Positions 6,709-32,000 of a DNA stretch of 32,000 nt are shown one piece after another (the stretch's first letter is position 1; each line of letters starts with the position of its first letter). Below the pieces are notes generated by a model. It saw only the letters and a list, made by a program, of their open reading frames with translations, searched no databases and was not told the origin of the DNA. The position numbers and the translations under genes are program-made. This DNA is from Candidatus Lokiarchaeum ossiferum (GTDB lineage: Archaea; Asgardarchaeota; Lokiarchaeia; Sigyniarchaeales; Promethearchaeaceae), in contig CP104013.1 of NCBI GenBank assembly GCA_025839675.1, forward strand, positions 5,580,001-5,612,000, read 5' to 3'.

Positions 6709-8406
6709 TTATTCTTTCTTCCCGATGTGTGGGAGAGTATCCCTTTTATTTAGGATAAACACACCAATTCCTAGGAAAACTATGTAGATTGAAGCCATTA
6801 TCAACCACTTCCACCAACTAAAACTAGATGCCCACCCAAAGCAAATTAAGGCAACTGAGATGCACATTAAGAATGTAATTGGTGCTGTTTTTTTAATAAT
6901 TTCACCTTCAATCCCCACTTCATCGATGGTTGCTGCTGCATTTTGAATTTTTGCGGGTGAAATTACTGATGCAAGGCCACCTCCTACTCCATTGGCCGTA
7001 CCAACAGCTATTGGATTCATTCCTAAACTTACAGCGGTTTGAGCGTGGAAATTTGTAAACATTGCAATTGCTGATGTCTCAGATCCAGATATAAATCCCG
7101 CAAACAAACCAACAAACGGAACCACCAGAGGGTAAAATCTGCCAAAAGTTTGGGCTGTTCCCTCCGATAAAATACTCACCATATTATTAGAATTTACTTT
7201 CTCCCATGCCCCATTGATGAGAATGGTTCCAGAATTTATGAATAGAAATGCAATACCGAAGAAAATCGCTGCAGTAAATACCGGGCGAAGAGATCTTTTT
7301 ATCCAAATTTGTGCCGATTCTTTTAAGGATCCTTTCTTATATTTTCTCAGAATAGGAATAGAAAGCAATGTTGAAATCAATACCCAAAAATATGCATGGG
7401 AAAATACTTCAGTCTTCACAACAACTTCACCAATGGTGACTGGTAAAGCTAAATCCTCAGTTAAAAATTGATGAATCGCTGGAATTAAATTGGTAACAAT
7501 AGCGAATATAATAAGGAGAATCCAAGGGAAAAATGCTTTCCATAATGGCATAGATTGATCCACCAGTTTCTCTTCTTCGGATAACACGGAAGGATCAAAT
7601 ATTTTAATTTTCTTTATTTTTGCAACTAGCAGTAAAGCAAGAGCCGTGGCCAATCCAGAAATAACACCTGTGAGAGTAACAATTCCGAAGTAATTTGTTA
7701 CAATTGCAGTTCCTCCTGCTACTAATCCTGCAGTGATTGCAAATACCAAACTCTCTTTATTAAATAATAATTTTTTTCCTCCCGCTAACCATAACATCCC
7801 AAAAGCAATCCCCAAGGTGATTATAGGCATATAGAGCGAAAATGCAAATCCTGCTTCTTGAAGCGGAATTCCCATAAATTCAGCAAAAAAGACTGCTGGA
7901 ACTGCTAATAAGGCAAAGGTGCATAAGGGGTCATACCCTATTGCAGGTAAAGATACTGCTGCAAATGCACTATACCCCATAGCAAGCAATACTGGGGGTA
8001 GCATAGTTACTGGTGTGGCACCAATTGAGACTAAAAATGTTCCCAAGGCTAAATTAATGAACATTATTTGGAAAGCTTGATTTCCTCCTCCGATTTTTTT
8101 AAAATTTACCACAATTTTTTGAAGAGAACCTGTCTTTTCTTGATAGGTCATCATGAAGATAGAGGTCAAAACCATCATGGATATGGGAAATGATTTAAGC
8201 ATGCCTGCAAGAGATGCTAAAATTCCTACTTTCCAATTTGTTTTAAATATGATTATTGCCAATACGAACATGATTGCATAAATAATAATACCAACTTGAT
8301 GAGCTTTCATTTTAAAATAGATAAGCAAGAAAACTCCTACAATAAATGGCAATAAAATAAGAACAATGTTTAGAAATAACCCCATAATAATGAACAAGCA
8401 AGTCAA
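6709..8406 (-). CDS. lctP: L-lactate (glycolate) permease, LctP family
   Basis: 565-aa polytopic ORF. The C-terminal segment FVGLFAGFISGSETSAIAMFTNFHAQTAVSLGMNPIAVGTANGVGGGLASVISPAKIQNAAA aligns with the conserved [20 protein letters not shown]...ANTTGGVTGKMISPQSI block of E. coli LldP (from memory). Confidence 0.85.
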   Translation of the reverse strand: MTCLFIIMGLFLNIVLILLPFIVGVFLLIYFKMKAHQVGIIIYAIMFVLAIIIFKTNWKVGILASLAGMLKSFPISMMVLTSIFMMTYQEKTGSLQKIVVNFKKIGGGNQAFQIMFINLALGTFLVSIGATPVTMLPPVLLAMGYSAFAAVSLPAIGYDPLCTFALLAVPAVFFAEFMGIPLQEAGFAFSLYMPIITLGIAFGMLWLAGGKKLLFNKESLVFAITAGLVAGGTAIVTNYFGIVTLTGVISGLATALALLLVAKIKKIKIFDPSVLSEEEKLVDQSMPLWKAFFPWILLIIFAIVTNLIPAIHQFLTEDLALPVTIGEVVVKTEVFSHAYFWVLISTLLSIPILRKYKKGSLKESAQIWIKRSLRPVFTAAIFFGIAFLFINSGTILINGAWEKVNSNNMVSILSEGTAQTFGRFYPLVVPFVGLFAGFISGSETSAIAMFTNFHAQTAVSLGMNPIAVGTANGVGGGLASVISPAKIQNAAATIDEVGIEGEIIKKTAPITFLMCISVALICFGWASSFSWWKWLIMASIYIVFLGIGVFILNKRDTLPHIGKKE

Positions 8407-8476
8407 AAAGAATTAAAAAGATTCGGAATGTGGGAAAAAAGTGGATGTATGAACACGATAAAAGGTGATTTCAGGT

Positions 8477-8935
8477 CTATCCTTTACCATGTTTTCCCGC
8501 ATAAAATGCCATTCCCAACTGCGCGAAGAGAAAAATACTCGTTAAGATCCAAGGGAAAATTCCCAGTTCACGAAGAGAGATTGTCATCATCAGCAAACTG
8601 TAATAATAGAAAATTAAGAATGGGACGAGAATTTTTAGTTGTTTGGGATTTCGAAATTCAATTTTTTTCCAATAATCGACGATGAAGCAAAGAATACTGA
8701 ATAGAGTATAAGTGAATGCTCCGATAGTGTGATAAAATTCGTATTCCTCATTTAAAATAATTGTTCCGAGAATTAAAGTCAGTATTCCCAATGAAATACT
8801 AATTAATCCTAAAATATGTTCTATTTTTTTTCCCCATTTCCCCCCTTTTACCCTTAGATAGAAGTTAAGTGATTGCGAAAGATTTACCCAATTCACAATA
8901 ATGAAAAATAACCAAAGAATTGTCATAAGTTCCAT
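8477..8935 (-). CDS. Small membrane protein (4-5 TM), unknown function
   Basis: 152-aa ORF that is almost entirely hydrophobic helices. No motif recognised. Confidence 0.45.
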   Translation of the reverse strand: MELMTILWLFFIIVNWVNLSQSLNFYLRVKGGKWGKKIEHILGLISISLGILTLILGTIILNEEYEFYHTIGAFTYTLFSILCFIVDYWKKIEFRNPKQLKILVPFLIFYYYSLLMMTISLRELGIFPWILTSIFLFAQLGMAFYAGKHGKG

Positions 8936-9041
8936 GGCTATTAGATAGAAGTCAAGCTTTATAAAATTTCAAAAAGTATATTGAAATAAAAAAAGGGATA
9001 AAAAAAAGAAGATATCATAACCTGAAAAGAAATGCTTGATT

Positions 9042-9923
9042 TTAATTTTTCTTCCCATATTGTTGTTCTTTGAAGCCATTTTTCATAATATTGGAGTTAT
9101 ATCCCGTTGCAATGGATTTTTTGTCTGCATAAACAAATAATGCTGTATTATATACTGATTCTGCGACTCCAAACACTAAGGATAGGATAATCAGAAATAC
9201 TATAAATATCCCTATTCCGATCAGAATACCAACAAAATCGAATGCTAAATATAGGAAATATGATCCAACTGCACAAGCGATGAATCCTAAGAATCCGAAA
9301 ACAAATTTTATCAAATTCATACTGAAATATCTTACCAAACTTTCTCCCCAGGTTTCTCTTAAAGTTGCCACAGATTTTTTTATAGCTTTTCCTGGACCTA
9401 AATCATAGTATACCATTCCTGGAACAACGAAAATTGTCATTATTGACCATGCTAATCCAAGAATGCCTCGAATCGCATCCAAAATGAATCTTCCCCATTT
9501 TCCTGCTCCTCTAGATGCTTGCTCTAAAATATAGAAAATCAACCCAACAGTGGCGGATAAAAGACTCCACATAAAGATTAAATGGATTTTTGAAAAAGCA
9601 AATTTAAGACTTTGACCAAAAGTTGCATTTCCCCCTTCAAATCTTATTTTTGTTGTATAAACAACACATACATTAAAGAAGGTGGCGATAAATGCTAATC
9701 CAAGATATGTGAGGAAAACAAATACATACTCCAATGTATCAAATGCACCGTAACTATTGGGATCATCAAGTAATTGCGTAATTATTGTAGGAAATAGCAA
9801 CGCAAAGGAATAGAGTCCTGAGAATATCGCTGATAAAAATGGAAACCAGAGCATTTCTTTATCCTTTCCAACCGTGCTGAAGGAAACTTTCGTAATTTCC
9901 CAGCTTCTGCCAAATACACCCAT
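9042..9923 (-). CDS. Polytopic membrane protein, unknown function
   Basis: 293-aa ORF with about 6 TM helices and short soluble loops. No catalytic motif recognised. Confidence 0.5.
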   Translation of the reverse strand: MGVFGRSWEITKVSFSTVGKDKEMLWFPFLSAIFSGLYSFALLFPTIITQLLDDPNSYGAFDTLEYVFVFLTYLGLAFIATFFNVCVVYTTKIRFEGGNATFGQSLKFAFSKIHLIFMWSLLSATVGLIFYILEQASRGAGKWGRFILDAIRGILGLAWSIMTIFVVPGMVYYDLGPGKAIKKSVATLRETWGESLVRYFSMNLIKFVFGFLGFIACAVGSYFLYLAFDFVGILIGIGIFIVFLIILSLVFGVAESVYNTALFVYADKKSIATGYNSNIMKNGFKEQQYGKKN

Positions 9924-17466: not shown

Positions 17467-18357
17467 TTAAAAAATACTGTTGCCACAATGATCGCAGTAA
17501 ATGGAGGCTAGGTTTTTTATATTCTTCCCACAAGAGGGACATTTTTTTGAAGTTTTTGCAGTGTTTAGACCCGCTTTTGAAATTCTAACAGGATTAATTA
17601 TCCGAGTTTCTTGTGAATTCGAGATCGGGTCAAAGATTGGATTTGTTGTTGTTTTTGGGGTGTTATTAAAGATTGGATTTGTTGTTGGTTTTGGGGCGTG
17701 GTCAAAGATTGGATTTGTTGTTGGTTTTGGGGTGTGGTCAAAGATTGGATTTGTTGTTGGTTTTGGGGTGTGGTCAAAGATTGGATTTGTTGTTGGTTTT
17801 GGGGGGTTATTAAAGATTGGATTTGTTGTTGTTTTTGGGGTGTTATCAAAGATCGGATTCGTTGATGTTTTTGGTGCTGGTTTGTATGCTGTTTTCTTGC
17901 TTGATTTGACCTTGGGACTAATTTTCGGAGATACGGGTTTTGTTTTATTAGGTTTTGCAATGCTGTTTGTTTTAAAGGTAGGGTTTCCTATGGCTACTGA
18001 ATTAATTTGAGGTGGAATATTTGCACTTTGATTAGAGGTTTCAGGATATAATGCCTTAATTCGTTTCTGGGATATGATCATTGCTGGTAGAAAAACAATA
18101 TAAATTATTAATCTTGCCATGGCTGTACCCGCTGATGCGCCTCCGTAGACTATTCCTCCTTTCATTGATTTTTTAAAAGATCTAAAAGCAACCCAAGAAA
18201 AAAATAATAAAACAAGGAAAAACCCCACATACATTCCGAAATGACCAAATATCAATCCACTCATAAAAATATCAAACGAAACAAAAATTAATTCCAAGAT
18301 TAGCGTATTTATGAAAAAGTTGGAATAACTCTTTGAAATGGCTTCATCTTTCGTCAT
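17467..18357 (-). CDS. Membrane protein: N-terminal TM helices, P/T/N/K-rich disordered region with 7 tandem 12-aa repeats, C-terminal zinc ribbon
   Basis: 296-aa ORF. TM helices in aa ~15-100, the PKPTTNPIFDHT-type repeats, and C-terminal CPSCGKNIKNLASIYCDHCGNSIF (CxxC...CxxC). Confidence 0.65.
   Translation of the reverse strand: MTKDEAISKSYSNFFINTLILELIFVSFDIFMSGLIFGHFGMYVGFFLVLLFFSWVAFRSFKKSMKGGIVYGGASAGTAMARLIIYIVFLPAMIISQKRIKALYPETSNQSANIPPQINSVAIGNPTFKTNSIAKPNKTKPVSPKISPKVKSSKKTAYKPAPKTSTNPIFDNTPKTTTNPIFNNPPKPTTNPIFDHTPKPTTNPIFDHTPKPTTNPIFDHAPKPTTNPIFNNTPKTTTNPIFDPISNSQETRIINPVRISKAGLNTAKTSKKCPSCGKNIKNLASIYCDHCGNSIF
17623..17874 (-). repeat. Tandem coding repeat, 36-nt unit x7 (PKPTTNPIFDHT)
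   Basis: Units read PKTSTNPIFDNT, PKTTTNPIFNNP, PKPTTNPIFDHT, PKPTTNPIFDHT, PKPTTNPIFDHA, PKPTTNPIFNNT, PKTTTNPIFDPI. The central units are near-identical at the DNA level (gtcaaagattggatttgttgttggttttggggtgtg on the + strand). Confidence 0.9.
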
Positions 18358-18650: not shown

Positions 18651-19871
18651 ATGATATTACAAACAGCTGGAGATATTTTTGTTGGTGTTCTTGTTGGAGG
18701 CCTTATTTTAGGGGCCATTTTGTTAATTATTTATTTAAAGAATATGATCGTGGTCCCTTTTAACGAGATCCACGTAATCAGTAGAGGAAAGAAGATTAAC
18801 ACTCTTGACGGAAAAGGGCGTTATCTTTATCTTAAACCATTGATGGGGAGAACGATTATTCCTAAGCACGTGCTCGATATTGAACCAGGTCTTTTGGAAA
18901 TGCACGATTGTGATAACTTACCCTTTGGAATTGAAATCAGTGTTAAGGTACAAGTCACAGATCCACAGAAAGCGGCAGCTACTTTAACTCGAATTGATCA
19001 TACAACTGTTTCCAAAGTTGTAGAAGATACTGTCATGTCTGCAGCTCGCTCTATTGCAATGGAACGAACTATTTTAGATATAATGAAAAAACGGGAGGAT
19101 GTCGAACAATCCGTATATAGCATGGTTTCCGATGCTCTTGGAAAATTAGGATTATCGGCTATTATCTTTGACATTAAAAATATTCGCGATATCGATCAAA
19201 GCCAAGTAATATCCTCAATGGAACGGGTTAAAATTGCGGAATTACAAAAAAATGCTCAAGTTTCAGAAGCGATTCATAAAAAAGAAGCCACTGTTAAACG
19301 AGAACAAATGATGCAAGAAGAAGCTGCTGCAAGATTAACTCGGGAACAAGAGATTATTACACAACAAGTTAAAGTGGACCAAGAACAGTTGATCCTCGAA
19401 AAACAACAATCTTCGAAAAAAGCAGAAATTGAACGTGAAAAGCAACGCATTTATGCAGAAGCTGCTAAAGAAAAATTGATGATAGAAACACAAGCTGCTG
19501 CTGATGCTATCAAATTAAAGGCTGAATCTGAATCTCATGCAATCAAAATCCGTGCTGAAGCAGATGCGGACGCAATTCTCAAAAAGGGACAAGCTGAAGC
19601 GACAGTCTTAGAAATGAAAAATAAAGCCATGGGAGGTAATTTTGCTGCCCAAATTGAATTATCTAAAATAATGTCTGTTGCTCAAATTGATTCAGCCGGA
19701 AAAATTGCCGAAGCGTTAGGTAAAAATAATAAAATCATGTATCTACCTACAGGTGGAGATAATGGAATTCTTTCCAATTTTATGCCTAAAATGGATGCCA
19801 TAATGCAATCTGGTTTACCTGCAGAAATCATGGAAACTCTTGGGAAGAAAAAATCGACCAAAAAACAATAA
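18651..19871 (+). CDS. Flotillin-like SPFH/Band-7 protein (FloT/YqiK type)
   Basis: 406-aa ORF. N-terminal TM helix (IFVGVLVGGLILGAILLIIYL), an SPFH core, and a long E/A/K/Q coiled coil (AEAAKEKLMIETQAAADAIKLKAESESHAIKIRAEADADAILKKGQAEA). GAGG lies 9-12 nt upstream of the ATG. Confidence 0.85.
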   Translation: MILQTAGDIFVGVLVGGLILGAILLIIYLKNMIVVPFNEIHVISRGKKINTLDGKGRYLYLKPLMGRTIIPKHVLDIEPGLLEMHDCDNLPFGIEISVKVQVTDPQKAAATLTRIDHTTVSKVVEDTVMSAARSIAMERTILDIMKKREDVEQSVYSMVSDALGKLGLSAIIFDIKNIRDIDQSQVISSMERVKIAELQKNAQVSEAIHKKEATVKREQMMQEEAAARLTREQEIITQQVKVDQEQLILEKQQSSKKAEIEREKQRIYAEAAKEKLMIETQAAADAIKLKAESESHAIKIRAEADADAILKKGQAEATVLEMKNKAMGGNFAAQIELSKIMSVAQIDSAGKIAEALGKNNKIMYLPTGGDNGILSNFMPKMDAIMQSGLPAEIMETLGKKKSTKKQ

Positions 19872-19945: not shown

Positions 19946-20599
19946 ATGGTAAAAGTTCCAATTGGAAAGGAAGTTGAAATTAATCTTTGGGATTCGAAGA
20001 AAAAGCACGGAATGGTCAAGTATTTTACTGACACAATGGATTTAGTCCGTGCCGAAAGCGAATTTTCTTTAAAAAAAGGTGATTCTGCCATTGTGGTTGA
20101 ATCCTATGATAGTTTTGTAGTTGTTGTTCCTGAAGATGAATATACTCAATTGCTACATGGTTCACATTTAGATGGGATTGATATTCAAGGCTTAAATGAA
20201 TTAATTTATAAATTATTAAAGGAGAGGATAAAAGATACTGGAGGAATTCTTTCTTTTGATGAGTTATGGTCAATTTTTAAGCGATCATCTATTCAAAGTG
20301 TTATTACGAAAAAGCATTTAAAAAAGGCTATAAAAATTCGACAAAGCTCATTTGATCGAATTAAAGATGATGGAGATACCATTGTCGCTCTAAAACCTCA
20401 AGAATGTTTGAATGATATCACTCAAATCGTGCGCCATTCTTCCAATACTTCATATGTTACAAAAGATTTTTTACAAAGCACTTTGCACTGGTCTGATTTG
20501 AGAATTGAACGGATATTGGATTATTTGACTAAAGAAGGGCGCTGTAGGGTTGAAGATTCATTTCGAACAGGCACCCGATACTATATGAAATTTTCATAA
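19946..20599 (+). CDS. Soluble fusion: NfeD-like OB-fold domain + ESCRT-II-type (EAP30, Vps22/36-like) tandem winged helix
   Basis: 217-aa ORF. Aa ~1-65: HGMVKYF...VRAESEFSLKKGDSAIVVESYDSFVVVVPE fits the NfeD C-terminal OB pattern. Aa ~85-217: TGGILSFDELWSIF...KKHLKKAIK...TIVALKP...STLHWSDLRIERILDYLTKEGRCRVED...RYYM is co-linear with SNF8/Vps22 (NGGLITLEEL...; SLKWETERARQVLEHLLKEGLAWLD), recalled from memory. No TM segment. Confidence 0.55.
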   Translation: MVKVPIGKEVEINLWDSKKKHGMVKYFTDTMDLVRAESEFSLKKGDSAIVVESYDSFVVVVPEDEYTQLLHGSHLDGIDIQGLNELIYKLLKERIKDTGGILSFDELWSIFKRSSIQSVITKKHLKKAIKIRQSSFDRIKDDGDTIVALKPQECLNDITQIVRHSSNTSYVTKDFLQSTLHWSDLRIERILDYLTKEGRCRVEDSFRTGTRYYMKFS

Positions 20600-24876: not shown

Positions 24877-25275
24877 ATGAATTTAAATACTGTACTTGCA
24901 AAGGAAATAATGAGTTCTGCAATTTCAACAACAACGCCAATGGAAAAAGTGTCTAATGCAGAAATCTTGATGATTAAAAAGAATATTGGGGGTTTACCTG
25001 TTGTTTCTGCTGAGACAAATCAATTGATTGGAATATTGACCCAACGCGATGTCCAACTAAGCCGTTCTATTATAGGTACCAATGTATTCCATGTTGATGA
25101 TCTTTATTCTAAAAACCCTGTCAAAGCCCTATTAGATGACCCTTTACCCGATATAATTAAAAAAATGAATGATTATAACATTGAGCGAATTCCTGTTGTT
25201 GATGAGAATAATTTCGTCCAAGGCATTATTGTAACTCAAGATATCATCTCTCTTTTAGGAAAATATTTCGCATAG
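24877..25275 (+). CDS. CBS domain pair protein
   Basis: 132-aa ORF with two CBS repeats (IMSSAISTTTP...GGLPVV...LIGILTQRDV and ...NIERIPVVDENNFVQGIIVTQDII). Confidence 0.85.
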   Translation: MNLNTVLAKEIMSSAISTTTPMEKVSNAEILMIKKNIGGLPVVSAETNQLIGILTQRDVQLSRSIIGTNVFHVDDLYSKNPVKALLDDPLPDIIKKMNDYNIERIPVVDENNFVQGIIVTQDIISLLGKYFA

Positions 25276-25321: not shown

Positions 25322-25403
25322 AAGTTGTCGTGCCCATAGAAATTTAAGAGCTATTTATTTTCATTAAGTCATAAATAGTAGATCATTAACTGGAGTTGAC
25401 TAG

Positions 25404-25811
25404 ACAATAGGGCACGGAAAAAAAAAGTATATCCCCCATTCTCAAGATGTATTTCCTTATATTTCTGAAGTAAAAAGTCCTGATTGGGTTCCATTTACTA
25501 CACTGTGGCCTATACCGGAAGCCTATTATCCTCATGTCTCCATTCCTGCTCTACGATCCTTATCTTATGCATATCAAGAATCATCCCTAGAAACGATTTT
25601 TTGGTTCTTTCTATTAAAGAAATATCTGAAACTTCCGATTGAAAAACATGATTACGAATTTTATGATGAATTATTAAAATGTGAGGTCATTGAGGAGAAA
25701 AAAAATGGTTTTAAGGCAAATCCATTACATTTATGGAATGTAACCCGTGATAAACAAAATATTCGTTCTGCTCCTGATTTATCTTCAACTTTTTATGCGC
25801 TCCACATTTTA
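25404..25811 (+). pseudogene. Start-less 135-codon open frame, probable displaced 5' part of the giant ORF (prenyltransferase/terpene-cyclase-like alpha/alpha repeats)
   Basis: My manual translation of the frame of the giant ORF gives TIGHGKKKYIPHSQDVFPYISEVKSPDWVPFTTLWPIPEAYYPHVSIPALRSLSYAYQESSLETIFWFFLLKKYLKLPIEKHDYEFYDELLKCEVIEEKKNGFKANPLHLWNVTRDKQNIRSAPDLSSTFYAPTF*. It contains no ATG/GTG/TTG codon, so it is absent from the ORF track. Its repeat motif (KNGF...DLSSTFYA) parallels QKPNGGF...DVNDTFWIGY in the downstream ORF. Confidence 0.5.
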
Positions 25812-25871
25812 AAATATATCGGTAGATTAAATGAATATCTCCAAGATCAGAATGGAGAAAAGCGAGATTTT

Positions 25872-28800
25872 TTGTTAAATTATATCGAAGATTTTGAAGA
25901 ACATTTAAAAAATCGTCAAAATAAAGCTATATCGGAATATAAGATCCTCTTTTTTATAATTTCAATTTATGATCTCCTTGGAGTTCCCCCAAAGACACTT
26001 AATAGTCGATTTATACGAAAATTGTCCCAATCTTGTAAAGGGACTGATCAGATTTATCGCCTACTCTGCCTACAATACATCGGTAATAGAGATTTGATTA
26101 ATGATGTTGAGTTATTCAAACTCCAAAAGTATCAAAAACCAAACGGCGGTTTTACCATTCAAAATTCTGCTTATGCTGATGTGAATGATACATTTTGGAT
26201 TGGATATACTTTAGAATCTTATAAATGGCTCCTTCCTTATAGGGCTGGACCATTATATTCGTTTATTGTGGCTGTTTTTAGACACGTAAATCTTTCTCAA
26301 AAAGAAAATTTTGATCAACAAATCCAATATTTGGCTCAAATGGTGGTTCTCCAGACAAATATTTTTAATAGTTTGATGAATGAAGCCGAAAAATTGATTT
26401 TTTCTAATCTTTCACCCAACGGATTGTTAGATTTGAAAATTCTATCCATTCAAGGAGGATTTTCAGGTTCCGAACAAGATATTATTCGTCATATTAACAA
26501 TAAATATCAAATCCAGTTGGATATTATGGATAATAAAATCCTTTTCCGACGATTTTTGAATAAAATTAATACATTTGAAGAAAAAATTGCTATCAAATTG
26601 AAGGATAAAATTCAAACTCACTCGCAATTAGACATAACTGAATTTCGAAAAGGATTTAATCGACGAATGGCAAAAAATTTGCGAATCAAGGATGAAGAAC
26701 TGATTAAATTGCTTCAGAGCATGATGCAAGAACACTTTTTTACTGGTAAGATAAATAAAAAGAGTCGGTTTCCATTTTCTCACAATTTTTATTTTATCCG
26801 GGAAAGTTATTTAGAATATTTAATTGTATGCAACAAACCCGTCTCTTGGGAAAATATCCGTCATGAAAAACGTCGATTAGACGAAATTTCTAAAGACATA
26901 TATAGCATGACTCGGGAAATGGAAATTTCTACCTCAAATATTATGAATGAGATTGAATCTTTGATCATTGTAGGAATTGACCCTGAATTCATTGAAGAAC
27001 GCCTAACTTTCAATATAAAGAAAACTTTGATGGATGCTTCTTTTTTCAATAAAACGATAGAATCTTTTGAATCTGAGTTTGAATTAATTAAACCTCAAGT
27101 TGCACTTGAAACCTTATTTAAAAGATGGAATTTTATATATTCATCTCTTCAAAAGAATTTTCAGAACGTAAGACGTATTTTGACAATTAAAATTGGAACT
27201 TTGCGTGAAGAAATTGATCAGCACCAGTTAACTGTGGATTTAGAAAAATTAATTTCAAACAAAATTGGTTTCTTGATGGAGCAATTTGATGGATTCGATA
27301 GAACTTTTCGAATTAAGTTGGAGAGTGAATATTCCCGAGATAATGTGAATAGACTTGAAATTTTTCTTCAAGAAATTGAAACAAGTACAGAAGATGCAGA
27401 TCACCAGGTGCGGGCTTTATCATTGCGTATATCAAGTAAAGAAAAAAATATTGCTTCTTTCCGTAAAAAAGTGATTTCCCGATGGATCTCTCAACTTGAT
27501 GAATTTAAAAACGTAATTTCTTACTATAACTTGGGAATAAGCTTGTGGAACAAGAAAATTGGTGAGATTGATATTAATTTTAACCAATTTACTTCAACTA
27601 TTGAAAAATTCAAAGATCAAATTAATCAATTTATCCAAGATCATGATTATTCTCAAGCTTTGAAGAATACAGAAACGGGATTTGTAGAAATATCTAAGAA
27701 TATTGGCAAATTTTCTAAAAATTTGAAGAAAGATATTGGAAAATATTATAAAAAAAATCGGAAACTCGCCCCCTTGATAAGAACTATCCAAAATGAATGG
27801 CTAGAAATGCAAAACATTCTGGAAGAAGACATTCAAACAACTCGAGATCAATATTCACAGTCCATACAAATGGATCTTAAAACTCATTTGCGAGAAACTT
27901 TGAATTTAAAAGTGACAAAGGTAATTACCGAAATGAGACAAGAAATCATAAAGGTCGAGAAGCAGATTAATTCTGAAATTCTTAAAGAAGGAGACTTTCC
28001 GAAATCTCAATATATTACTAAGATCCAAGACTTAAATGAAATTGTTATTGATAAATCTCAAGATGTATCGCAAGCGGTCAAGTCTGCTGTAAGTAAATAT
28101 AAAAAATTCGATTTTTCCCCCATTATTTCCAATTTTGAAAAATTCAAAATTGATTTTCTCGAAGAAATTAAGAATTTGGAGAGAAAATTTCAAGGTGATG
28201 AATTAATTTATTGCATTTTACAACATGCAAAAAATCAGAAGTTAAATTTTATCCCAATGTCGGAGATAAGTCAATTAGTTAAAACCGATGAGAAAGAACT
28301 TCTCGACCAGTTGTCATTATTAGTTACTGATGGAAGATTAAATGCGAGAATTTTCGGAGATCCTATAACTATTGAAGTTCATAATGAATCTTGGCGGAAT
28401 TATAAAAGATTAAGGGCCCACAATTTAATTCTTCTCCGTGAATTAAATTCTTCCACAAATAAAATTGAAATCTTTTTTGAAAAATCCATCCAAAGTAATG
28501 AATTTATGAGTTCTATCGTCCAAATTCGTCAACTTTGTCTGAATTTTAAACAATCTATATTCCAAACTTTAGAATCTTATGAAATTTTCATCCAAAAGAA
28601 TAATATAGATATGAAAAACACGCTGTTGGAAAAAACATATCGTGACTTTTACTTACAACTAGAGAAATTAACCCAAAGAGTTGAATCTTTTGCTAAAAAT
28701 TGTGACCTTGCAGAAAAATATCAAGATTTTCTAAATCAGAATACAATTCTACTTGAAGAGAACATCAATTCTGAAATTAGGCGTTTGCATCGTTATGTCG

Positions 28801-29867
28801 ACTCTAGGCCAAAAACTTCTTCTTCGAAACAATCTATTGAATGGTTGAACTCTCAAAAAAATGCTTTAAACAATGGAATTACTCTAATCGACAATAAAAT
28901 TGAAGAATTTGCACAACAAAATGTGATGGGTGATATCCATTTAGTGGTTCGCCATCTTGATAATTCATATCAACAACAAAAACACAATTTATTAAACGAA
29001 TATCAGAATGCTCTTGAGGACCTTCTTGAAAGAATTGCTTTACAAGAAATAAATTCAATGCAAAAGGATATGGATAAAATACTTCTCGGCCTCCAAAATT
29101 CCTTGAATGATTTTATATATAACTATGATCTTGAAATAACAAATAAAATTCGCAGCAAAGAGTTTTTGCTCGCTTCCAAAAAACTTAAGATAAGAACTCA
29201 ATTAATCGAAGAACGGGTTAAAAAAATTGAGAAAAAAATGGCAATTTCTAATAAGTCATTATCAAATAGGTCCAAAATTTTTTCAATCAAATATTCTAAT
29301 TATTATAAAGAACAATGGGAAGAATTCTTAAGTGATTTTATCAAAACTCAATTGCAAGCTAAGTTTATAGCACTTCAAACCGAAATGATTCTCCATTTCA
29401 CTTTTTTTTCTATGAAATCTCTCAAAGGTAATTATGTTCCTCTTCGAGTTTTTACAGAGGATTTGAAAATAAAGCACACGGTTGTAAAACATGCCTTAAT
29501 GACCTTGATTTCAGAAGATATTTTACCTGGAAAAGTAGATCTTTCTTATGATATATATTTTGAGGGATCTGATGAATTGGATGCTGAAACTATTGCATCA
29601 TTGGATATAATAAAAAAGACAAATGTAAAATTTTACATGGGAATTTCGCGTGTGTCAAATGTAATGAAATTATTGTATCCCTTTCTAGCGTCAATTCCTC
29701 CAATAATTACAATAATTTATCTAATTGGTGATTCTACTTCAAGAGTTCTTTGGGTTCTTGCCCCAATGCTCATTCTAATTTTTATAATCTCCGTTGTTTG
29801 GATTAAAAAGGGAAAAGACAAAGTCAAAAAAGACCAACTTTTAAGAAAGTCACGGCAACTAAATTAA
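25872..29867 (+). CDS. Giant (>=1331 aa) tail-anchored protein: prenyltransferase-like alpha/alpha repeats, ~900 aa coiled coil with embedded winged-helix-like modules, two C-terminal TM helices
   Basis: Uninterrupted 3996-nt ORF. N-terminus: YRLLCLQYIG...QKYQKPNGGFTIQNSAYADVNDTFWIGYTLESYKWL (Q-x-x-x-GGF repeat signature). Long K/E/Q/N/I-rich heptad-like region. WH-like modules, e.g. IPMSEISQLVKTDEKELLDQLSLLVTDGRLNARIFGDPITIEV (aa ~794-836) and VPLRVFTEDLKIKHTVVKHALMTLISEDILPGKVDLSYDIYFEG (aa ~1189-1232). TM helices LLYPFLASIPPIITIIYLIG and VLWVLAPMLILIFIISVVWI. In-frame ATGs also exist at 25830 and 25851. Confidence 0.7.
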   Translation: MLNYIEDFEEHLKNRQNKAISEYKILFFIISIYDLLGVPPKTLNSRFIRKLSQSCKGTDQIYRLLCLQYIGNRDLINDVELFKLQKYQKPNGGFTIQNSAYADVNDTFWIGYTLESYKWLLPYRAGPLYSFIVAVFRHVNLSQKENFDQQIQYLAQMVVLQTNIFNSLMNEAEKLIFSNLSPNGLLDLKILSIQGGFSGSEQDIIRHINNKYQIQLDIMDNKILFRRFLNKINTFEEKIAIKLKDKIQTHSQLDITEFRKGFNRRMAKNLRIKDEELIKLLQSMMQEHFFTGKINKKSRFPFSHNFYFIRESYLEYLIVCNKPVSWENIRHEKRRLDEISKDIYSMTREMEISTSNIMNEIESLIIVGIDPEFIEERLTFNIKKTLMDASFFNKTIESFESEFELIKPQVALETLFKRWNFIYSSLQKNFQNVRRILTIKIGTLREEIDQHQLTVDLEKLISNKIGFLMEQFDGFDRTFRIKLESEYSRDNVNRLEIFLQEIETSTEDADHQVRALSLRISSKEKNIASFRKKVISRWISQLDEFKNVISYYNLGISLWNKKIGEIDINFNQFTSTIEKFKDQINQFIQDHDYSQALKNTETGFVEISKNIGKFSKNLKKDIGKYYKKNRKLAPLIRTIQNEWLEMQNILEEDIQTTRDQYSQSIQMDLKTHLRETLNLKVTKVITEMRQEIIKVEKQINSEILKEGDFPKSQYITKIQDLNEIVIDKSQDVSQAVKSAVSKYKKFDFSPIISNFEKFKIDFLEEIKNLERKFQGDELIYCILQHAKNQKLNFIPMSEISQLVKTDEKELLDQLSLLVTDGRLNARIFGDPITIEVHNESWRNYKRLRAHNLILLRELNSSTNKIEIFFEKSIQSNEFMSSIVQIRQLCLNFKQSIFQTLESYEIFIQKNNIDMKNTLLEKTYRDFYLQLEKLTQRVESFAKNCDLAEKYQDFLNQNTILLEENINSEIRRLHRYVDSRPKTSSSKQSIEWLNSQKNALNNGITLIDNKIEEFAQQNVMGDIHLVVRHLDNSYQQQKHNLLNEYQNALEDLLERIALQEINSMQKDMDKILLGLQNSLNDFIYNYDLEITNKIRSKEFLLASKKLKIRTQLIEERVKKIEKKMAISNKSLSNRSKIFSIKYSNYYKEQWEEFLSDFIKTQLQAKFIALQTEMILHFTFFSMKSLKGNYVPLRVFTEDLKIKHTVVKHALMTLISEDILPGKVDLSYDIYFEGSDELDAETIASLDIIKKTNVKFYMGISRVSNVMKLLYPFLASIPPIITIIYLIGDSTSRVLWVLAPMLILIFIISVVWIKKGKDKVKKDQLLRKSRQLN

Positions 29868-29928: not shown

Positions 29929-31053
29929 TTAGGAAAGATTTTTCCAGTGTTGATAAAAGGAGAACATTTTAGTTAAGCGTTCATTTTCCAACGAATAATA
30001 ATTAGATCGACCTTTCTTTTGGATCATTATTAATCCGCATGTTTCCAAAATACGTAAATGGTGGGATACTGAAGCTTGTGATTTCTCTATTAAATTTTCA
30101 ATCTCTGGGATCGTACTCGGACTTTTTCGCAGAAACTCTAAAACTTTCATCCGATCGGTATTACTTAAAGCATCGAAACATTCCGGATAATTTTCAGCAT
30201 TTCTATCAGAAAGGAAATCCAAATTTTTTGTTAGAGAAAAGTGAATATATTTGCCACTTATTTTTCCAATTATGATTCCTAAATTTTCTAACGTAGTAAG
30301 ATGGTGTTTAACAGTGGTCCTAGCCTTATTTAACAAGTTTTCCAATTCATTAATCTTTCTTGGTTTTTCTTTAATATATTTTACCATGTGAAATCTATCG
30401 CTATTCCCGAGAGCATTAAACCATTTAGGGAGATTTGGATCTTGAAATAAGTCCTCAAAATCTATTTTAATTGATTTATTTAGTGAGCTGGAAAGTGAAG
30501 TTTCTGTAGAAGGACTATCAATTTGCAAAAGTTGTTTAATCTGGTCGAATTTCTTTTCACTTTTCTCAAGTCGATCTTCAGTTTCTTCGAGAACTTTTTC
30601 ATATTTCTGTTTTTCTTCTTTTTTTTTTTGGTGATTATGTAATGTTAGTTCAATTGTTGTTCGCAAATCATTCTCGTTTGTCACAGGTTTTACAATATAG
30701 CTTGAAGGCTCTGTATCTTTAGCTTTTTCAAAAGTTTTTATGTCACTGTATGCAGTAAGGAAAATTATCGGAATGTCCATCGTCATATTAATTGTTTTTG
30801 AAGCTTCAATTCCAGTCATATTGCCTCGCAACATAATATCCATCAGAATCAAATCGGGTTGGTCATTCTTTGCCTTTTGTATTGCTTCTTCACCTGTGAC
30901 TGCTATACCAATTACTTGATATCCCATTTCAGATAGCATTTCTTTAAGATCTTTACTGGTGATGAATTCATCTTCTACAATGAGAATTTTTTTTACTTCC
31001 ACATGACTAATTTTCTCATTCTTCCATAAAAATGATATGGAATTTCGTACCAA
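29929..31053 (-). CDS. Response regulator: REC domain, coiled-coil linker, two tandem ArsR-type winged-helix HTH domains
   Basis: 374-aa ORF. REC: KKILIVEDEF...PDLILMDIML...PIIFLTAYSD. K/E-rich linker. Two HTH units: ALGNSDRFHMVKYIKEKPRKINELENLLNKARTTVKHHLTTLENLGII and ALSNTDRMKVLEFLRKSPSTIPEIENLIEKSQASVSHHLRILETCGLI. An alternative GTG start at 31002 would remove the 38-nt overlap with the kinase gene. Confidence 0.85.
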   Translation of the reverse strand: MVRNSISFLWKNEKISHVEVKKILIVEDEFITSKDLKEMLSEMGYQVIGIAVTGEEAIQKAKNDQPDLILMDIMLRGNMTGIEASKTINMTMDIPIIFLTAYSDIKTFEKAKDTEPSSYIVKPVTNENDLRTTIELTLHNHQKKKEEKQKYEKVLEETEDRLEKSEKKFDQIKQLLQIDSPSTETSLSSSLNKSIKIDFEDLFQDPNLPKWFNALGNSDRFHMVKYIKEKPRKINELENLLNKARTTVKHHLTTLENLGIIIGKISGKYIHFSLTKNLDFLSDRNAENYPECFDALSNTDRMKVLEFLRKSPSTIPEIENLIEKSQASVSHHLRILETCGLIMIQKKGRSNYYSLENERLTKMFSFYQHWKNLS

Positions 31054-32000
31054 AATTTCGATATACTTTTATCGTTCCACCTAGTTGTTTTGCTAAACCT
31101 ATAATTAATTGAAGACCTAGAGTTTCAGTTTTTTCTAAATTGATCTCCTTCGGTATCCCTATTCCTGTATCTCCGGCAATTAATTCAATTTTATTGTCGG
31201 TTCTCTTCTTTGCTTTGATAAAGATGGTTCCTCTACTCTTTTCTGGGAAAGCATACTTCAATGCATTCGAAATAATTTCATTTATGATCAACCCGCAACT
31301 AATCGCTTGATCTAAATTTAGTTCGAAATCATCAATATCTATCTCTAAATGGATTAATTCGGGTGATTTTTGATAAGTTCTAAATAAATTTGAGACTAAA
31401 TTTTGGATATAATTACCAAAATCCAGTTTTCCCAGATCATCCGATCTATACAATGTTTCATGAATAAGTGACATCGTTTTGACTCGATTTTGAAAATCTA
31501 TATTTATTTGAAGGGTTTTATCATCAGAGATTTTAGGTTTTTGTAAACGGATTAGGCTTGAAATAATTTGTAAATTATTTTTAACTCTGTGATGAATTTC
31601 TTTTAAGAGTACATCTTTTTCTTGCAAAGATTTTTTTAAATCGTTTTGTTCTTTCTCTAATAGGATTTCATATTTTCGTCTTTGAGTGATATCAATTCCA
31701 TATCCAACAAAAAAATCTAATTCATTTTCATCATTAAAAATTGGTTGTCCATGCCATTCGGTCAGATATTTTTTTCCATCTTTTGAGATGATGTAATTCT
31801 CACTCAAAGTTGGGTTAGGATGATTTATCATATTCTCAAAAATTTTACTGACATATTGTTGCTCTTCTTTAGGTATAAAATTTTGTAAATAATTTTTTCC
31901 AACAACCTCTTCCAACTTATACTTCAATGTTTCCCTCATTTTTCTATTCATCATGATAGTTTTTCCTTCTTTATTAATTGCAACAAAAAAGGCTGGAGAT
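31016..32000 (-). CDS. PAS-domain sensor histidine kinase (HisKA_2 + HATPase_c), 5' end outside the window
   Basis: EIHHRVKNNLQIISSLIRLQ is the HisKA_2 H-box. ATPase motifs: IINEIISNALKYAF (N box), GDTGIGIP (G1), GLQLIIGLAKQLGG (G2). The PAS-like segment begins before the listed ATG: the frame stays open to the window edge (...SPAFFVAINKEGKTIMMNRK...), so the gene is probably longer than the 312-aa ORF. Confidence 0.85.
   Translation of the reverse strand, partial: SPAFFVAINKEGKTIMMNRKMRETLKYKLEEVVGKNYLQNFIPKEEQQYVSKIFENMINHPNPTLSENYIISKDGKKYLTEWHGQPIFNDENELDFFVGYGIDITQRRKYEILLEKEQNDLKKSLQEKDVLLKEIHHRVKNNLQIISSLIRLQKPKISDDKTLQINIDFQNRVKTMSLIHETLYRSDDLGKLDFGNYIQNLVSNLFRTYQKSPELIHLEIDIDDFELNLDQAISCGLIINEIISNALKYAFPEKSRGTIFIKAKKRTDNKIELIAGDTGIGIPKEINLEKTETLGLQLIIGLAKQLGGTIKVYRNFGTKFHIIFMEE

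Follow-up and report, generated by a model that had tools for sequence, protein, structure and literature searches.

A giant membrane-anchored protein of Asgard archaea with a prenyltransferase-like toroid, PCI-like winged helices, and helical rods of conserved length

What is the giant protein encoded near the end of a 32,000-nucleotide (nt) stretch of the Candidatus Lokiarchaeum ossiferum genome, and what might it do in the cell? We analyzed positions 5,580,001–5,612,000 of contig CP104013.1 (assembly GCA_025839675.1), hereafter the window, with positions counted from its first nucleotide. An earlier note, made from the letters alone, had described at 25404–29867 a tail-anchored protein with a toroid-like head, a long coiled coil, and winged helices. 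We find a real, constrained gene, as judged from comparative data, whose product has a well-supported architecture: a prenyltransferase-type toroid, four winged helices, two helical rods, and a C-terminal membrane hairpin. The analysis establishes the extent of the gene, its conservation, the predicted folds of its domains, its anchor, and the lack of catalytic motifs in its head. The protein is tentatively best explained as a cytoplasmic tether or scaffold with a binding head.

How far does the gene extend? The 3996-nt open reading frame (ORF) of the earlier note is present on the forward strand (25872–29867), where a mechanical rule sets a TTG start and a product of 1331 amino acids (aa) that is 100% identical to the hypothetical protein NEF87_004770 of L. 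ossiferum. The same frame is open upstream of TTG 25872 as far as a TAG stop at 25401–25403, with no in-frame ATG, GTG, or TTG in between; the chance probability of these 156 stop-free codons, calculated from composition at ~31% GC, is ~3e-6. We number residues ("ext aa") in the translation of 25404–29864 (1487 codons), so that nt = 25404 + 3 × (aa − 1). In a word-indexed protein search, relatives of 1417–1488 aa covered 95–99% of this extended translation; homologs aligned across the upstream stretch, from FPYISEVKSPDWVPF on, and orthologs of 1460–1504 aa aligned up to the in-frame stop at 25401. Among three Lokiarchaeum-clade genomes, codons differ synonymously in ~58% of the columns with identical residues, 5′ extension included, a pattern that we read as that of translated sequence. 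Because relatives align there and the codon changes are of the translated type, the ~470 nt upstream of 25872, which the earlier note had called coding-like, are on this evidence part of the same gene. TTG 25872 corresponds to ext aa 157, and NEF87_004770 as annotated is without 155 residues, about half of the first domain.

Where does translation begin? The ATA at 25407–25409 aligns with the ATG of "ATG GGA AAA AAG" (MGKKKK) in Promethearchaeum syntrophicum MK-D1, and the same string stands at the homologous codons of three MK-D1 congeners. "ATA GG(G/A)" is kept in four Lokiarchaeum-clade genomes (the window, L001, L003, and L007), each of which has an in-frame stop one to two codons before the ATA and no ATG, GTG, or TTG for 33–155 codons after it. 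The site in question is at 25392–25409 in the window, 4440 in L001, 2231 in L003, 2995 in L007, and 3001 in the MK-D1 locus (L010), and all five have GGAG, GGGG, or GGTGAG 9–11 nt before the homologous first codon; in the window this is a GGAG of presumed Shine-Dalgarno function (25392–25395), 11 nt before the proposed start. Because the ATA aligns with the MK-D1 ATG, stops lie just upstream, and no canonical start follows, we place the start at AUA 25407. Translation probably begins there, and the corrected coding sequence (25407–29867, forward strand) comprises 1486 aa plus the stop. The public model would have been cut short because the apparent start is this unusual codon. Four other candidates were rejected: read-through of the upstream TAG (no start codon lies farther upstream in frame), the conserved out-of-frame TTG 25396 (its phase varies among genomes), ATG 25447 in the +1 frame (missing from L001), and CTG/TTG 25503 (CTT in L003).

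The missing canonical start before the conserved N-terminus, together with a homopolymer run just inside the 5′ end, would fit an artefact: a low-complexity frame in an AT-rich genome, or else a pseudogene or a pair of genes fused by an assembly error at the A9 run (25419–25427). However, L001, an independent Illumina assembly (88% identical), keeps the same frame and the same upstream TAG through the run (A9 plus G in the window and A10 in L001, with equal total length), and L003 (71% identical) and L007 (49%) keep the frame without any A-run. Independent assemblies thus rule out a sequencing frameshift at the run. Given also the intact orthologs and the coding substitution pattern, the comparative data refute an artefact, to which we assign a negligible chance.

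How widely is the gene shared? A word-indexed search of 5.8 billion proteins returned 9–11 relatives, and an exhaustive HMMER search of 1.84 billion representative proteins with a profile of ext aa 1–500 returned, but for one possible borderline case (P0069, see below), members of this family alone, 62 proteins in all at E ≤ 1e-3 (27 of 1394–1499 aa, three paralog-type proteins of 1230, 1231, and 1318 aa, and the rest fragments). A scan of one genome per GTDB species found a relative encoded in at least 106 genomes; of the 80 loci kept, 61 have complete ORFs (1460–1504 aa, median 1470). The earlier note had considered that the ORF might be without homologs, which these 61 intact orthologs contradict, and had asked whether any homologs are restricted to Asgard archaea. 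Indeed, the named sources are all Asgard and almost all Promethearchaeota/Promethearchaeia (the Lokiarchaeial phylum in the NCBI taxonomy), including P. syntrophicum MK-D1 (DSAG12_02389, annotated "hypothetical") and Ca. Harpocratesius; a few metagenome-assembled genomes (MAGs) are labeled Thor-, Hermod-, Hod-, or Odinarchaeota, and Helarchaeota labels are confined to the shorter paralog-type relatives. One full-length relative comes from a 14-kb contig (L044, DATKTW010000086.1) that carries the bin label "Candidatus Nanopelagicaceae bacterium" but is most likely Asgard DNA placed in the wrong bin. The earlier note could name no described family with this combination of domains, and our literature searches (L. 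ossiferum, Asgard toroid/PCI, and locus tags) likewise found no published description of the family.

How is the protein held in the cell? Its only hydrophobic segments are two helices at the C-terminus, within the last 67 residues: transmembrane helix 1 (29664–29726, ext aa 1421–1441, Kyte-Doolittle peak 1.99) and transmembrane helix 2 (29742–29804, ext aa 1447–1467, peak 2.77), separated by a loop of five residues, GDSTS (ext aa 1442–1446). They span nt 29664–29804, in agreement with the two C-terminal helices that the earlier note had placed at ~29667–29804. A basic tail, KKGKDKVKKDQLLRKSRQLN, and the stop codon follow (29805–29867). No N-terminal signal sequence was found by a hydropathy scan. 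Both helices are present in all full-length relatives, and the hairpin is present in 61/61 complete orthologous ORFs. Because both flanks of the hairpin are basic, the positive-inside rule would place both of its ends in the cytoplasm, and the whole protein would face the cytoplasm. Just before the anchor lies a conserved short helix (29583–29618, ext aa 1394–1405) in the AlphaFold2 (AF2) model, 33–63% identical to distant relatives. The three paralog-type proteins (P0011, P0050, and P0053, 1230–1318 aa, from Helarchaeota and other MAGs) have toroid, winged helices, and rods without the membrane hairpin; in its place, P0050 and P0053 have a conserved C-terminus of globular appearance (…VALIIDG..SDW…W.GEL..F…) with no Pfam match.

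What does the other end of the chain look like? An AF2 model of ext aa 1–480, built from an alignment of 11 sequences, reached a predicted local distance difference test (pLDDT) of 79.3 and a predicted template modeling score (pTM) of 0.76. It folds ext aa 46–335 (25539–26408) into an alpha/alpha toroid of 12–13 helices, consistent with six hairpins, with beta-hairpins at KNGF (ext aa 94–103) and NGGF (243–259) and a long 33-residue exit helix (303–335). The top PDB matches in Foldseek were beta subunits of GGTase-I, GGTase-III/RabGGTase, and FTase (3dra_B, 6o60_B, and 1dce_B), followed by squalene-hopene cyclases and GH105 toroids. The Pfam family PF00432 (curated cut-off 26.5 bits) matches 4 of 9 close relatives; scores reach 77.4 bits (E 1.7e-21) in P0035, 62.8 in P0042, and 37.5 in P0046 among hairpin-bearing full-length orthologs, and 51.3 in P0050, 43.4 in P0053, and 39.2 in P0011 among the hairpin-less relatives. 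P0035 also matches RabGGTase beta by sequence (E 1.1e-5). Model and matches together show a prenyltransferase-type alpha/alpha toroid as the predicted fold of this region. The earlier note had proposed such a toroid from at least four repeats, and the motifs that it quoted are all present (ETIFWFFLLKKYL, KKNGF, DLSSTFYALHILKYIG, IYRLLCLQYIG, QKPNGGF, and DVNDTFWIGYTLESYKWL); the fold stands, but only two complete "NG(G)F ... DxxxTF[YW]" units are found in the L. ossiferum toroid. Ahead of the toroid lies a conserved N-terminal peptide, (F/Y)PYI(S/T)E(V/F)K..(D/E)...F (25452–25496, ext aa 17–31), with >90% column conservation across 62 family members. Residues 1–22 were modeled at low confidence, and the peptide is probably flexible.

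Is the head an enzyme? An active enzyme, either a prenyltransferase or a class II terpene cyclase, held at the membrane as the site of isoprenoid substrates, would agree with the PF00432 score and the RabGGTase match of P0035 and with the name [quoted passage not shown] that NCBI gives to several relatives. The catalytic residues argue otherwise. No Cys is invariant in the toroid across the family alignment, and no conserved Asp/Cys/His zinc triad was found in the family. In RabGGTase beta the zinc site comprises D238, C240, and H290; "ADVNDTFW" aligns with its "PDVCYSWW" and puts Asn opposite the zinc ligand Cys240, in a low-score, low-confidence alignment. A DxDD motif is found in 1 of 61 orthologs when their first 360 residues are considered. 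In addition, just two canonical repeat motifs are left in the L. ossiferum protein, the head sits at the chain end farthest from the anchor, and, apart from a possible borderline case (P0069, 425 aa, E 9.9e-4), the HMMER matches at E ≤ 1e-3 include no canonical prenyltransferase. Across the aligned family, then, no catalytic signature is conserved in the head, and we consider an active enzyme very unlikely.

Two cysteine motifs occur in the toroid. An H-C-x4-C-x2-C zinc-knuckle-like insert is found in 44/61 orthologs (ext aa 167–176, window ~25902–25931), and the L. ossiferum clade keeps only its His. The Cys columns of this knuckle, optional and absent in L. ossiferum, rate as the best-conserved Cys of the toroid, and we counted them in favor of a nonenzymatic head. 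The other motif, "KCE" (Cys93), reaches 94% conservation family-wide and is missing from some clades. No gene for a PPTA-repeat alpha subunit was found within the 32-kb window.

Which modules join the head to the anchor? Two winged helices follow the toroid: WH1 (26421–26558, ext aa 340–385; strand-helix-helix-strand in the AF2 model, pLDDT ~80–90) and WH2 (26616–26831, ext aa 405–476; a long beta wing in the AF2 model, in a basic region). The isolated WH2 fragment gave a weak PCI match (E 0.019). WH3 (28236–28385, ext aa 945–994) and WH4 (29424–29573, ext aa 1341–1390; strand-helix-helix-strand-strand in the AF2 model) are PCI-like. Against the curated cut-off of 22 bits for Pfam PCI (PF01399), the match to WH3 in the L. 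ossiferum protein is marginal (ext aa 946–983, 22.1 bits, E 1.8e-4), and PCI matches at WH3 or WH4 occur in 8/9 relatives (best E 1e-8). WH4 is among the best-conserved regions and is the site of the strongest PCI matches in relatives (P0022, E 1.8e-10, 41.3 bits; P0046, E 1.2e-6). A profile comparison shows WH3 and WH4 to be relatives (hhalign probability 84%, E 7e-6). The stalk model found PCI subunits of eIF3, the COP9 signalosome (CSN), and the proteasome lid in Foldseek, all weakly; CSN2, Rpn, and eIF3 subunits were among the matches of both models at E ≥ 0.018. Profile searches of PDB sequences with WH3, WH4, and WH1-2 gave thematically consistent matches to CSN1, CSN2, eIF3e, DDRGK1, and SarA, none of them significant. 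The three winged-helix examples of the earlier note correspond to WH2, WH3, and WH4, with WH1 as the fourth; it had considered that such segments might prove to be plain helix, and AF2 instead predicts winged helices there, with Pfam PCI matches in support at WH3 and WH4.

Winged helices also raise the question of nucleic acid binding. The four of them, chiefly the basic WH1–WH2, could bind DNA or RNA at a set distance from the membrane: the net charge of ext aa 331–490 (the WH1–WH2 region) is +10, distant members show weak helix-turn-helix (HTH) matches at WH3/WH4 (HTH_24, E 4.8e-7; AsnC-type; MarR), and WH3 has the SarA-family match. However, the net charge of WH3 (−1) and of WH4 (−3) is in the neutral to acidic range, the best family assignment is PCI, which is mainly a protein-protein module, and the toroid and the N-terminal peptide would be left without a role. 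We regard a membrane-to-nucleic-acid tether as decidedly unlikely.

What separates these modules? In the AF2 stalk model (model 2, ext aa 480–1487, pLDDT 81.4, pTM 0.35), rod A (26847–28235, ext aa 482–944) has nine helices in about four units of ~110 aa, and rod B (28386–29423, ext aa 995–1340) has seven helices in about three units of ~110 aa. The rods measure ~460 and ~345 aa, respectively, and total ~810 aa in 16 helices; the earlier note had read ~900 aa of coiled coil, of which a long heptad-patterned helical region holds and the continuity does not. Long and short helices alternate (65–77 and 31–36 aa in rod A; 61–77 and 31–36 aa over both rods) with a period of ~110 residues. Most rod helices have a hydrophobic period of ~3.5 residues across the family. 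By a crude heptad score, 64% of rod A, 30% of rod B, and 0% of the toroid and winged-helix regions exceed the 95th percentile of shuffled controls.

Conservation along the chain is uneven. The regions most alike in distant members (31–37% identity) are the toroid, WH1, the opening unit of the rods, and WH4 together with the helix before the anchor. The middle rod units are least alike (11–19%), yet they have almost no indels; this is expected of functional ends joined by a length-critical spacer. The first unit of rod A is highly conserved. It holds, at ext aa 497–555 (window ~26892–27068), the densest family-wide invariant block outside the head (…DIY.MT…I..EIES……RL…..LM.A.F…IESF), which is probably an interaction surface rather than plain spacer.

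Could the rods instead form a skeleton beneath the membrane? Spectrin-like three-helix units, joined sideways between molecules by PCI winged helices as in the horseshoe of the proteasome lid or CSN, would make a lattice that lends shape or stiffness to the cell body and to its protrusions. Oligomerization is a known role of PCI winged helices (PMC10936438). The regular alternation of helix lengths fits such units, as do profile matches between rod units that are weak but in register (U2–U4, U3–V3, and U4–V3 at E ~4e-4 over 94–108 columns; rod A against rod B at E 3.4e-4), and the high pLDDT of the monomer model suggests intramolecular packing. Instead of pairing in a two-stranded coiled coil, the rod helices may fold into bundles within one molecule. 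Against this, autocorrelation of profile scores gives no clear 110-residue peak, the unit-to-unit E-values could stem from helical composition alone, and the bundle geometry is predicted from helix lengths only. The Pfam matches and the top 50 Foldseek matches contain neither spectrin nor another rod family, and single rod units scanned alone against Pfam gave only subthreshold helical families. A skeleton, which partly coincides with the tether or scaffold reading below, seems to us unlikely, if the least so of the alternatives to that reading. By rough estimate the stalk would span ~120 nm fully extended and ~35 nm as seven bundles.

Which reading best unites these features? We favor a tether or scaffold that is anchored in the membrane, lies in the cytoplasm, and binds through a nonenzymatic head, and we put the chance that this is right a little short of even. 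The C-terminal two-helix hairpin would fix an almost wholly cytoplasmic protein of 1486 aa in the cell membrane, and, with no more than 20 residues after it, would insert post-translationally in the manner of a tail anchor. From the membrane would extend the two heptad-patterned rods, whose length is nearly invariant in the family, acting as a fixed-length spacer; the PCI-type winged helices that punctuate and cap them would be docking or oligomerization sites. At their far end the rods would carry the head, made of the toroid, two winged helices, and the conserved flexible N-terminal peptide. The toroid would have lost, or never had, catalytic residues, and most likely binds a hydrophobic or isoprenoid ligand or a partner protein.

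Several points weigh against this tether or scaffold reading. Binding, oligomerization, and tethering are roles that we infer from sequence and models, and no specific ligand can be named for the head. Foldseek matches of the toroid reach a template modeling (TM) score of 0.54 and "prob" 1.00, but at E ≥ 4e-3 they are weak, and the L. ossiferum protein itself stays below the PF00432 cut-off. In WH3 the helix-turn-helix core was modeled confidently and the wing at low confidence. The monomer rod model, with its low pTM, cannot separate an extended coiled coil from folded bundles. Initiation at AUA is very unusual in archaea, and its placement here comes from comparative sequence. No conserved operon partner appeared in the gene neighborhoods compared. 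The terms "ligand-binding" and "golgin- or tether-like" of the earlier note accordingly reduce to analogy, with neither golgin homology nor such a partner behind them. A bolder version is that the protein is an Asgard-wide, fixed-length tether whose head and N-terminal peptide capture an internal membrane, vesicle, or cytoskeletal filament at a set distance from the cell membrane, as a functional forerunner or analogue of golgin-type tethers, and, independently, that the gene is a natural instance of AUA initiation in an archaeon; we think this rather improbable. If true, Asgard archaea would have a tether built of a prenyltransferase-beta-like toroid and PCI winged helices, two domain types otherwise typical of eukaryotic machinery, in cells without visible endomembranes.

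What surrounds the gene? Upstream lies a CBS-domain gene (24877–25275), and downstream, on the reverse strand, a convergent response-regulator gene (29929–31053; a receiver and two ArsR-type HTH domains) followed by a PAS/HisKA_2 histidine kinase gene (31016–31954), the end of which the response-regulator gene overlaps by 38 nt. To judge from relatives that encode an 834-aa multi-PAS kinase, this gene probably extends past the start listed for it. Only Lokiarchaeum-clade genomes retain these CBS, response-regulator, and kinase neighbors; in other clades the upstream place is taken by genes for a legumain-like peptidase or for aromatic amino-acid biosynthesis. Since the neighborhood is not conserved, no functional partner can be inferred from it. 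In several genera a convergent DEAD/ResIII helicase gene (~715–720 aa) lies just downstream of the ortholog (L003, 9257–11416; L004, 12409–14562; L006, 12416–14563), and a convergent 720-aa ORF at the MK-D1 locus (7486–9648) is possibly the same helicase by size and position alone. The Lokiarchaeum clade has an insertion of two-component and other genes that separates the giant gene from the helicase. The recurring arrangement could be residual synteny.

On the forward strand, 5 kb before the giant gene, an SPFH/Band 7 gene (18651–19871, E 1.5e-13) stands immediately ahead of a 217-aa gene of the EAP30/Vps36 family (19946–20599, ESCRT-II-like), whose match exceeds the Pfam cut-off (E 7.4e-8); of the two, the EAP30 gene at least is conserved in L001. 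Links between SPFH proteins and ESCRT in archaea have been discussed (PMC10936438). On the reverse strand, a predicted 296-aa membrane protein (17467–18357) contains about seven tandem 12-residue repeats, PKPTTNPIFDHT, and a zinc-ribbon-like CxxC...CxxC end at its C-terminus. The corresponding DNA repeat (17630–17874; period 36, 6.8 copies, 91% matches) accounts for the GC-skew spike (0.36) at 17–18 kb and for the spurious ORFs that overlap there on the two strands. Nothing was found in the window by Rfam and tRNA scans.

Why does the protein matter? The family is among the largest conserved proteins of unknown function in Lokiarchaeia, and each of the two cultured model strains, L. ossiferum and P. 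syntrophicum MK-D1, has a member. A fixed-length, membrane-anchored spacer with a binding head would bear on how Asgard cells organize membrane, protrusions, and cytoskeleton, and Asgard cell organization is a central question for models of eukaryote origins. There is also a practical consequence: modeled or expressed as annotated, NEF87_004770 would have a broken toroid, with half of that domain missing. A conserved AUA start, if confirmed, would mean that gene callers keep shortening this gene, and perhaps others in the clade.

How does the protein compare with known systems? To the beta subunits of FTase, GGTase-I, and RabGGTase/GGTase-III it is linked by its ~290-residue toroid, by "GGF ... 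D..T(F/Y)" motifs, by the top structural matches, and by relatives above the Pfam threshold. It differs from them in that the family is without a conserved zinc-ligand Cys, the L. ossiferum protein keeps two canonical repeats, and its toroid continues into a chain of ~1150 more residues plus a membrane anchor. With PCI subunits of the 26S lid, the COP9 signalosome, and eIF3 it shares a PCI winged helix placed after helical repeats and before a helix. Unlike them it is archaeal and membrane-anchored and has several winged helices with rods of ~350–460 aa between; there is no sign of a multisubunit PCI complex, and the structural matches are weak (E ≥ 0.018).

Golgins such as giantin and golgin-84 are tail-anchored coiled-coil tethers: they are fixed in the membrane at the C-terminus, and a long helical stalk in the cytoplasm ends in a short conserved motif at the distant N-terminus. 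The likeness here is one of functional analogy only, in the C-terminal anchor, the presumably cytoplasmic stalk, and the conserved N-terminal peptide at its far end; no sequence or structural homology to golgins was detected, and the Lokiarchaeal anchor is a two-helix hairpin rather than a single helix, the stalk is interrupted by winged helices, and the head is a toroid. The earlier note had likened the winged helices to both PCI and ESCRT-II proteins. The PCI half of this comparison is borne out by Pfam and AF2, but for ESCRT-II (EAP30/Vps22, Vps25, and Vps36) the likeness amounts to a tandem pair, WH1–WH2, and a weak Foldseek match (3cuq_A, E 0.059, probability 0.66, TM 0.24), with no EAP30/Vps25 Pfam match in the protein or its nine relatives and no linkage to ESCRT genes; the EAP30-family gene 5 kb upstream is nevertheless genuine. 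Spectrin-repeat rods share the alternation of long and short helices and, at ~106 residues per bundle, a period close to ~110 residues; the likeness is in helix lengths only, with no Pfam Spectrin or Foldseek match for the rods. A membrane-anchored rod of the spectrin-repeat type is known in bacterial EzrA. DDRGK1/UFL1, the UFM1 ligase scaffold anchored in the endoplasmic reticulum, likewise combines a membrane anchor, a long helix, and PCI-like winged helices (profile matches of WH2 and WH3 at E 0.026–0.5, not significant), but has no toroid, and the anchor of DDRGK1 is N-terminal.

The protein is therefore not a member of the prenyltransferase enzymes, where it failed the catalytic-site test, nor of ESCRT-II, the golgins, or the spectrins. 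What sets the family apart is a combination, a strict conservation of length, and a restriction to Asgard archaea that are undescribed in the literature searched, in a protein whose every building block belongs to a known fold class.

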